Part shown: positions 33,576-35,031 of the stretch, piece by piece
Position numbering within the stretch: the first letter of the stretch is position 1
Layout of the letters: each line of letters begins with the position of its first letter
Assembly (NCBI RefSeq): GCF_030144855.1
Contig: NC_082738.1
Span: 41,850,001 to 41,914,000 of the forward strand
Direction: 5' to 3'
DNA from: Hypanus sabinus
Lineage: Eukaryota
DNA: 64,000 nucleotides
Program-made: the position numbers and the translations under genes
The notes under the pieces: generated by a model
Told to the model about the DNA's origin: nothing
Seen by the model: the letters and a program-made list of their open reading frames with translations, nothing else
Databases searched by the model: none

Positions 33576-35031
33576 ACCAATTATTTCCCAAAGCAACAGG
33601 GAGCCGCAGCACAGACGTAAAAGAGCCACATGTGGCTCCGGAGCCACGGGTTGCCGACCCCCGGGCTAGAGGAATGCTGAAGAAAGCTGAACACAAATCA
33701 ATCACTGAAAAGTAACTTGCTTCTGGTGGAATATTAGTCAAAAGCGTGTGTGGGTTGGGGACTACCACTGGCCAGTCCTCTACCACATCATTTACCGCTC
33801 GCAAGTCATGCACCAATCTCCACTTAGATTTATCTGCTTTTAAGACCGGCAGCAACGGGGGTATTGCATGGACTGTTTGTTCTTTTAAGCAGTCCTATTT
33901 CAAGCAACCCCTGCACTGTCGATGCTATTCCCTCTTCCGCTTCTGGTCTTAGAGGGTATTGTGGTCTCCTGTGTGCAATTGCTCCCCTTTTCAGCCTTAT
34001 TTCCACCGGACTCGCTGTTTTTATTTTCCCTACGTCCGTGTCATGCTGTGACCACAGAATAGATGGCAACTCATCTAACCTTTTATCTTTCTGCTGGCCT
34101 CTTTCCTTTCCCAGCAAGGGCCGGTGTGGTTGGGGAGTTATTTTGACCTCTCTCACTGTCCCTACCATATCTACACTTACCATTATTTTAATGCAATTGT
34201 TGTCTTCTGATATCCACACCTCTGGCGTGATTTTCCTCCACACTGTTACGGTTTCAGCACTCTTAACTAAGGGTCCTAAGTCTTTAGACTGATATCCCAT
34301 GTTTACCAACAACGTTACGTGGGGCGCAGCCTCCGGTATCCTGTACCATTTTTCTAAAAAGGTGTACCATTTAACTTGTAAAGCTGCCCCTTGCTTTCCA
34401 ATTATCACAGCCTCCCCTTCCAGGTGTTGTTGGGTACATGCCTCCAGGTGCCATCTCTCCTCTAACTCCCTGTTCCGAGTCTCGTCAAAAATCACTGTAC
34501 AATGTAGCTCAGATTTGGGCATTACAGCCCTGGGTAATATAGCCTGCACGCCCTTTTTCCATTTTTCCCAGGTTTCCTGAATCTGATCTGCGATGTCTCC
34601 TATCCAAAAGACATTAGCTTTCTTGTCTTCTCGCACTATCAATTGAGCCCCTGTTCTTCCCACACTCAGCCCATTTCTGGTGCATTCTAATTTTAATTCC
34701 AATTTCAATAAGGCATCTCTGCCTAACAAATTAATTGGAGTTCCTTTGAATACTAGCACCGGCAAAACAATTTCTTTATTTCCCATTCTCAACCGCACTG
34801 GAACCGTGCACTGTGTCAACTGTGTTTTTCCCGAGAACCCTACCGTCTTAATAAACTTTCCTGATATGGGAAGGTGAAGGGCATACTGTGGCTGTACGCA
34901 AGTATACGTGGCTCCAATATCTATCATCATTGGTGTCAGTTGTCCTTCTAACATAACCTGAACAATGGGTTCCTCATCTGCCTCCCTTGTTATCATTGGG
35001 TAATGTCCCCACTCAAGTTCTCGGGGCACCC

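Follow-up and report, generated by a model that had tools for sequence, protein, structure and literature searches.

The window (the whole stretch of 64,000 nucleotides of the Hypanus sabinus genome that was analysed) contains two endogenous retroviruses (ERVs), one nested in the other, with the following features:

26560..27004, minus strand: 3' LTR of the outer ERV (98.4% identity to the 5' LTR over 445 columns)
27202..27963, minus strand: TM part of env of the outer ERV (Pfam TLV_coat, E 4.6e-10)
28883..31662, minus strand: remaining part of RT, RNase H and integrase, spread over several frames
33598..34054, minus strand: N-terminal portion of RT, whose frame changes near 33858-33918 (tblastn with natural relatives)
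34055..34138, minus strand: linker of 28 residues between the 2H domain and RT, of nearly fixed length among relatives
34139..34618, minus strand: predicted 2H phosphoesterase domain of the CNPase/Trl1-CPD type (residues 158-317 of the 33833-35089 frame; AF2 model and structural matches)
34310..34321, minus strand: second putative catalytic motif H-V-T-L, preceded by Pro (His codon 34319-34321)
34493..34504, minus strand: first putative catalytic motif H-C-T-V (His codon 34502-34504)
34637..34645, minus strand: likely PR/2H cleavage site (Gln and two hydrophobic residues)
34688..34978, minus strand: retroviral aspartic protease (Pfam RVP, E 1.3e-8; residues 38-134 of the 33833-35089 frame)
35035..37210, minus strand: broken gag of the outer ERV, with a zinc knuckle in 35035-35535
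37775..43386, minus strand: nested second ERV, gag-pro-pol without the 2H insert (LTRs 99.1% identical)
43398..43840, minus strand: 5' LTR of the outer ERV

In the outer ERV, a minus-strand frame of 419 aa (33833-35089) without a stop comprises the protease, the 2H insert and the start of RT. The insert of ~160 residues between protease and RT, anticipated by the original prediction, is thus borne out: the protease is recognized by Pfam, RT by its N-terminal W..D.G motif starting at W346, and within the ~210 residues that separate them residues 158-317 correspond to the domain. The motifs LHCTV and PHVTL lie exactly where they had been placed, with their histidines 61 residues apart, and the nested ERV indeed has no insert, as its protease frame (40735-41100) runs directly into RT (39185-40753). 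The nested element (37770-43391) sits in the primer-binding site of the outer ERV, ~10 nt past its 5' LTR, and is flanked by a 5-bp target duplication; no env was found among its ORFs of at least 100 aa.

The outer-ERV copy is dead: its gag is fragmented, its RT is frame-shifted and split, and the second ERV occupies its primer-binding site. The RT is broken ~65-75 residues in by the frame change near 33858-33918, which is followed by an insertion of ~1.9 kb, and with pol broken in this way the whole Pol cannot come from this locus; the pieces of RT show 40-50% identity to fish-type relatives (tblastn). The insertion (~31663-33597) contains internal direct repeats spaced by ~320-340 nt; one of its frames (32526-32840) presumably resembles a fragment of a hAT transposase. 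Elsewhere in the window (50229-60372) a related repeat occurs several times, in direct (98% over the 300 nt shown) and inverted orientation.

The anticipated 2H fold was recovered by modelling and structure comparison. The AlphaFold (AF2) model of the domain, based on 66 sequences, has a pLDDT of 97.2 and a pTM of 0.90, and all 42 PDB rows listed among the top 50 Foldseek matches are CNPase or its fish orthologue RICH. Comparison with 48,161 structure representatives (VIA) likewise placed CNPase first (Z 16.8, rmsd 2.5, 159/160 residues aligned), and drCPDase (Z 9.3) and proteins of the LigT type (Z 8.3-8.9) were the next 2H proteins; 21 structural matches reached Z >= 5, headed by named 2H proteins. 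Over both structure comparisons CNPase scored Z 16.8-17.8 (rmsd 2.3-2.7, 158-159 residues), and the CPD of fungal Trl1 (6u05) scored Z 13.1 over 149 residues. Other 2H structures included MHV ns2 (Z 8.1), Usb1 (8.1), Acb1 (7t27, 7.8), AKAP18 (7.5), the plant Appr>p CPDase (7.4), rotavirus VP3 (7.1-7.5) and the penguinpox cGAMP PDE (9bkq, 6.5). The model also matched models of viral polyproteins (WEHV1 Q9WHI8, TM 0.86; WDSV A4GTG3, TM 0.78; Q2VF30, TM 0.87). In the top clusters of the ESM Atlas, tRNA_lig_CPD was found in 18-63% of members (score 0.96, or 0.94 with a relative as the query), at a recognition score of 2213, which is under the guide value of 2300 given for the tool. The relationship is much less visible at the level of sequence. 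Searches of PDB sequences gave no 2H match and the profile search gave proteases; among 66 aligned proteins a Pfam CNPase match was obtained for one (E 0.011), the only Pfam match of the domain itself is Acb1 (E 0.035, 14.3 bits vs the cut-off of 27), and a profile comparison with the CNPase exon of the host aligned the second lobe with a probability of only 3%.

With two H-x-T/S-hydrophobic motifs and a predicted two-lobed fold, the domain has the hallmarks of the 2H superfamily, and the scores of its model (Z 17.8 and 13.1, vs at most 9.3 for the other 2H groups) assign it to the CNPase/Trl1-CPD structural subgroup. To judge from the sub-threshold Pfam CNPase match and the flanking PR and RT, it is not an orthologue of CNP, but it may work like CNPase. 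The model does not group with the viral 2',5'-phosphodiesterases (LigT group; Z 7.1-8.1, about half the value for CNPase), and neither Pfam nor the predicted fold places the domain with the Acb1/poxvirus cGAMP PDEs, although activity on cGAMP would still be compatible with it.

The catalytic domain of vertebrate CNPase (CNP1/2; RICH) is thus the closest solved fold, from which the retroviral domain differs by its low identity (10-16%), by being ~50 residues shorter and scoring under the Pfam cut-off, and by its surroundings, namely PR and RT in place of the PNK-like domain and the lipid anchor of CNP. Fungal Trl1 CPD shares the top ESM Atlas family but is only 10% identical, and the retroviral polyprotein has no kinase or ligase partner. 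MHV ns2, MERS NS4b, the rotavirus VP3-CTD, AKAP7, Acb1 and the penguinpox PDE share the 2H superfamily and its paired HxT/S motifs; the viral 2',5'-PEs and cGAMP nucleases are, like the retroviral domain, encoded by viruses, but they match it far more weakly (Z 6.5-8.1, 108-131 residues aligned). The host's own CNP gene lies at a separate locus on the same contig (C87:40.70 Mb), ~1.2 Mb from the window, which in view of the copy number of the ERV is probably a coincidence.

A full HMMER scan of 1.84 billion representatives identified 156 proteins at E <= 0.001, whereas word-indexed homologue searches matched none of 25 and none of 123 candidates. Among outside relatives, a Hypanus sabinus protein ranks first (90% identity). 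Pfam scans of 38 relatives found protease, RT or RNase H domains in 33, and wherever the coordinates allow the 2H match to be placed, it lies after PR and before RT. Among 30 clusters of relatives that were looked up, 17 could be named, one from a ray and 16 from teleosts. Of 92 distant relatives that span both HxT/S motifs, 80 have them intact (149 of the 150 listed matches were aligned), so the conservation that the original prediction called for extends well beyond the family, and a chance motif is ruled out. His100 is the most conserved column of the relatives' profile alignment; among the relatives that cover the respective positions, the first motif has His in 100/111 and Thr/Ser in 107/112, and the second His in 124/131 and Thr/Ser in 125/130. 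Both motifs are present in 17/17 aligned teleost proteins (18 named), and the named Hypanus relative has lost the Thr of one motif. In the 23 proteins in which both junction motifs were located, the two His are 61-64 residues apart. The identity of the domain follows that of RT (Spearman 0.79 over 153 non-independent pairs from 18 proteins), as expected from long vertical inheritance. Four teleost relatives (P0078, P0092, P0095 and P0113) retain PR and the 2H domain and lack much or all of RT before RNase H; to judge from their sequences, these elements are internally deleted and have kept the domain.

The presence of such a domain in fish retroviruses is already in print, in papers of 2002 and 2009 as cited in reviews: WDSV is named among the fish retroviruses with a 2H domain (PMC9503650, citing Mazumder 2002), and CNPase or macro domains are described as encoded by some teleost epsilon-like ERVs (PMC4977317, citing Basta 2009). 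Together with the fold matches to WDSV and WEHV1, these sources support the precedent named in the original prediction. What the ERV of this cartilaginous fish carries is the 'CNPase-like' domain already known from epsilon-like fish retroviruses: it lies in frame between PR and RT, a position shared with teleost relatives, it has the same motifs as the 2H domains of epsilonretroviruses and teleost ERVs (WDSV, WEHV1), and its predicted fold is that of the WDSV/WEHV polyproteins. It differs from the three viral models in sequence (15-24% identity), in its copy number (at least 150) and in its ray host. A search of mostly open-access literature found neither a report of a 2H domain in ERVs of cartilaginous fish nor an assay of any retroviral 2H domain; the first half of the elephant-shark ERV study (Han 2015, PMC4422223) and the passages searched of PMC4616055 and PMC8672886 do not mention the domain.

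The family of the outer ERV is large and fairly young. The 4.04 Gb genome contains at least 150 matches to the domain with 89-100% identity, among 991 candidates. In order not to select on the domain, we picked 29 other copies by similarity of the protease. The insert is present in 27 of them, which rules out a chance motif or the insertion of a cellular gene at a single locus, and it is free of stops and frameshifts in 12; the His of the first motif is found in 28 and that of the second in 25, and 20 copies keep both HxT/S motifs. Using a crude count against the commonest codon of each column, we obtained omega of 0.27-0.38 for variants of the domain found in at least three copies (17 non-synonymous and 16 synonymous sites) and 0.81-1.11 for singletons (119 non-synonymous, 38 synonymous); a reciprocal set of 29 gave similar values for the protease (0.27-0.38 shared, 0.84-1.16 singletons). 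As variants common to at least three copies mostly arose in replication, their omega reports selection on the replicating virus, and these counts say that the domain was under purifying selection during viral replication and decayed neutrally later. A catfish-type domain query of the genome mostly recovered the same family; some of its matches (C31:54400934, C76:28574501, C24:141793807 and others) align differently (query 3-106, 41-42%) and possibly represent a second 2H-bearing ERV subfamily. Copies with identical scores occur on many small contigs (C2915, C228, C854, C288, C381, C2865, C2888, C2436, C2518, C2609), which suggests that a provirus lies in a unit amplified in tandem or that haplotigs are redundant. 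In expression data, 16 runs contained part of the stretch and none as much as half of its words; four of these runs were inspected, as contigs only, and the RNA status of two of the four is a guess.

The original prediction envisaged a protease-released enzyme, and this is supported at the N-terminal junction of the domain; at the C-terminal one the observations point both ways. Fodor and Vogt are said to have described in 2002 that WDSV protease sites carry Gln at P2. A Gln-hydrophobic-hydrophobic pattern precedes the domain in 26/44 relatives (vs 25% expected) and occurs at the RNase H/integrase junction in 6/11, whereas between the domain and RT it is found in 5/38 (vs 17% expected in this shorter window); the windows were chosen after inspection and the sequences are related. 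Among 56 distinct copies of the family, the pattern is found upstream of the domain in 54 and downstream in none. The 2H domain is therefore likely to be released from the protease, as far as the cleavage-site pattern can tell, and its release from RT may differ between lineages. The distance from the second-motif His to the Trp of RT is 86-89 in 21/23 proteins. Three observations count against a fusion of 2H with RT: the linker that follows the domain has a hydrophobic patch in 52/56 family copies, it contains Gln-Met in some relatives, and in a model of a natural PR-2H-RT relative both linkers are disordered and there is no fixed packing (pTM 0.54), so that a rigid 2H-RT unit is unsupported.

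As to the substrate, a common fold does not fix it, since 2H enzymes switch substrates readily. The CPD of Trl1 opens 2',3'-cyclic phosphates. The same activity is described for CNPase (PMC11629607), and 2H enzymes are reported to clean up 2',3'-cyclic ends (PMC9503650). Because the two closest folds share this chemistry, we lean, on balance, towards a domain that opens 2',3'-cyclic phosphates, either at broken RNA ends or in free 2',3'-cNMPs, to yield 2'-phosphate and 3'-OH. Against this explanation stand the identity of only 10-16% to CNPase, the profile probability of 3% with the host CNPase and the single Pfam CNPase match among 66 proteins; in addition, most retroviruses, the nested ERV included, replicate without the domain, so that RNA healing is not essential in general. 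Of the two functions originally proposed, RNA-end processing fits the CNPase/Trl1-CPD fold best, while the emphasis on 2-5A and other immune messengers is disfavoured by the lower scores of the enzymes concerned (Z 6.5-8.1) and by the intact motifs in ERVs of teleosts, which lost OAS-RNase L.

A possible but unlikely alternative is that the domain, delivered with the core, antagonizes cGAS-STING by degrading the 2'3'-cGAMP made when cGAS senses reverse-transcribed DNA. Retroviral cDNA is a ligand of cGAS, and teleosts retain cGAS-STING, so the argument from teleosts used below against 2-5A does not touch this reading. The host has a gene with a STING ligand-binding domain (on C33), which makes destruction of cGAMP conceivable; 2H-fold cGAMP nucleases exist (Acb1, the penguinpox PDE), and Acb1 is the sole, sub-threshold, Pfam match of the domain. 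Their structures are nevertheless much more distant than that of CNPase (Z 7.8 and 6.5 vs 16.8), and Pol products of low copy number would be poorly suited to clearing a diffusible messenger. Known 2',5'-PEs leave cGAMP intact (PMC8406329).

It is considerably less probable that the domain is a non-catalytic module (an RNA binder, an RT accessory or a decoy of host CNP) whose histidines were kept for binding. Such a role would agree with the nearly fixed length of the linker to RT and with CNP being an interferon-induced inhibitor of lentivirus assembly; CNP also has non-enzymatic roles (PMC11629607). However, few columns are as conserved as those of the putative catalytic His and Thr/Ser, and the PR-2H-RT model lacks the fixed packing mentioned above.

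Slightly less probable still is an antagonist of RNase L that degrades 2-5A, as coronavirus ns2 or rotavirus VP3 do. The host has a tandem cluster of ~7-8 OAS1_C genes at ~25 kb spacing (C31:79.65-79.86 Mb), and an exon-wise genome search for RNase L with PF06479 gave two matches, of which one was checked and is IRE1 and the other looks alike. According to PMC10400998, OAS-RNase L is present in cartilaginous fish, the chimaera pair being functional when tested in yeast, but the ancestor of ray-finned fish lost it. Antagonism of RNase L therefore cannot explain why ERVs of 16 teleost species, which lack the pathway, have intact motifs: unlike in the case of the viral 2',5'-PEs, most hosts of the retroviral domain do not have the pathway to be targeted. 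The structural scores of ns2 (Z 8.1), AKAP18 (7.5) and VP3 (7.1-7.5) argue in the same direction. No more probable is that the substrate is ADP-ribose-1'',2''-cyclic phosphate and that the domain takes part, together with the macro domains of some fish ERVs, in a conflict over NAD+/ADP-ribose: two reviews report CNPase or macro domains in teleost epsilon-like ERVs (PMC4977317, citing Basta 2009) and link 2H domains to ADPr>p processing (PMC9503650), but the plant Appr>p CPDase scores only Z 7.4 and no Macro family was found in Pfam scans of 38 relatives or of 10 window frames.

Returning to the opening of cyclic phosphates, we propose that the 2H domain would be synthesized and packaged within Gag-Pol, be separated from the protease by cleavage at the Gln-hydrophobic site, and act in the virion or the reverse-transcription complex, either attached to RT or freed. 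There it could heal the ends of nuclease-nicked genomes or tRNA primers, or it could remove cyclic-phosphate ends seen by innate sensors. In a more specific and decidedly tentative version, a CNPase-type domain cut off the protease and kept on RT would turn the >p ends of tRNA primers or of nicked genomes into 3'-OH that can be extended during reverse transcription.

The domain matters as a conserved part of a retroviral Pol and as a predicted enzyme, for which the literature searched contains no functional test. Our analysis adds its assignment to a structural subgroup, an argument against 2-5A, the asymmetry of its junctions and a large family in a ray. The question is thereby narrowed, as the fold points to cyclic-phosphate chemistry, the genetics of the hosts speaks against 2-5A, and a 2H-RT fusion can be put to the test on the basis of the junction pattern. 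If true, end-healing by an RT-attached domain would be a repair step undescribed for any retroviral RT and kept from sharks and rays to teleosts. The range of the domain is extended to a large and fairly young ERV family in a cartilaginous fish.
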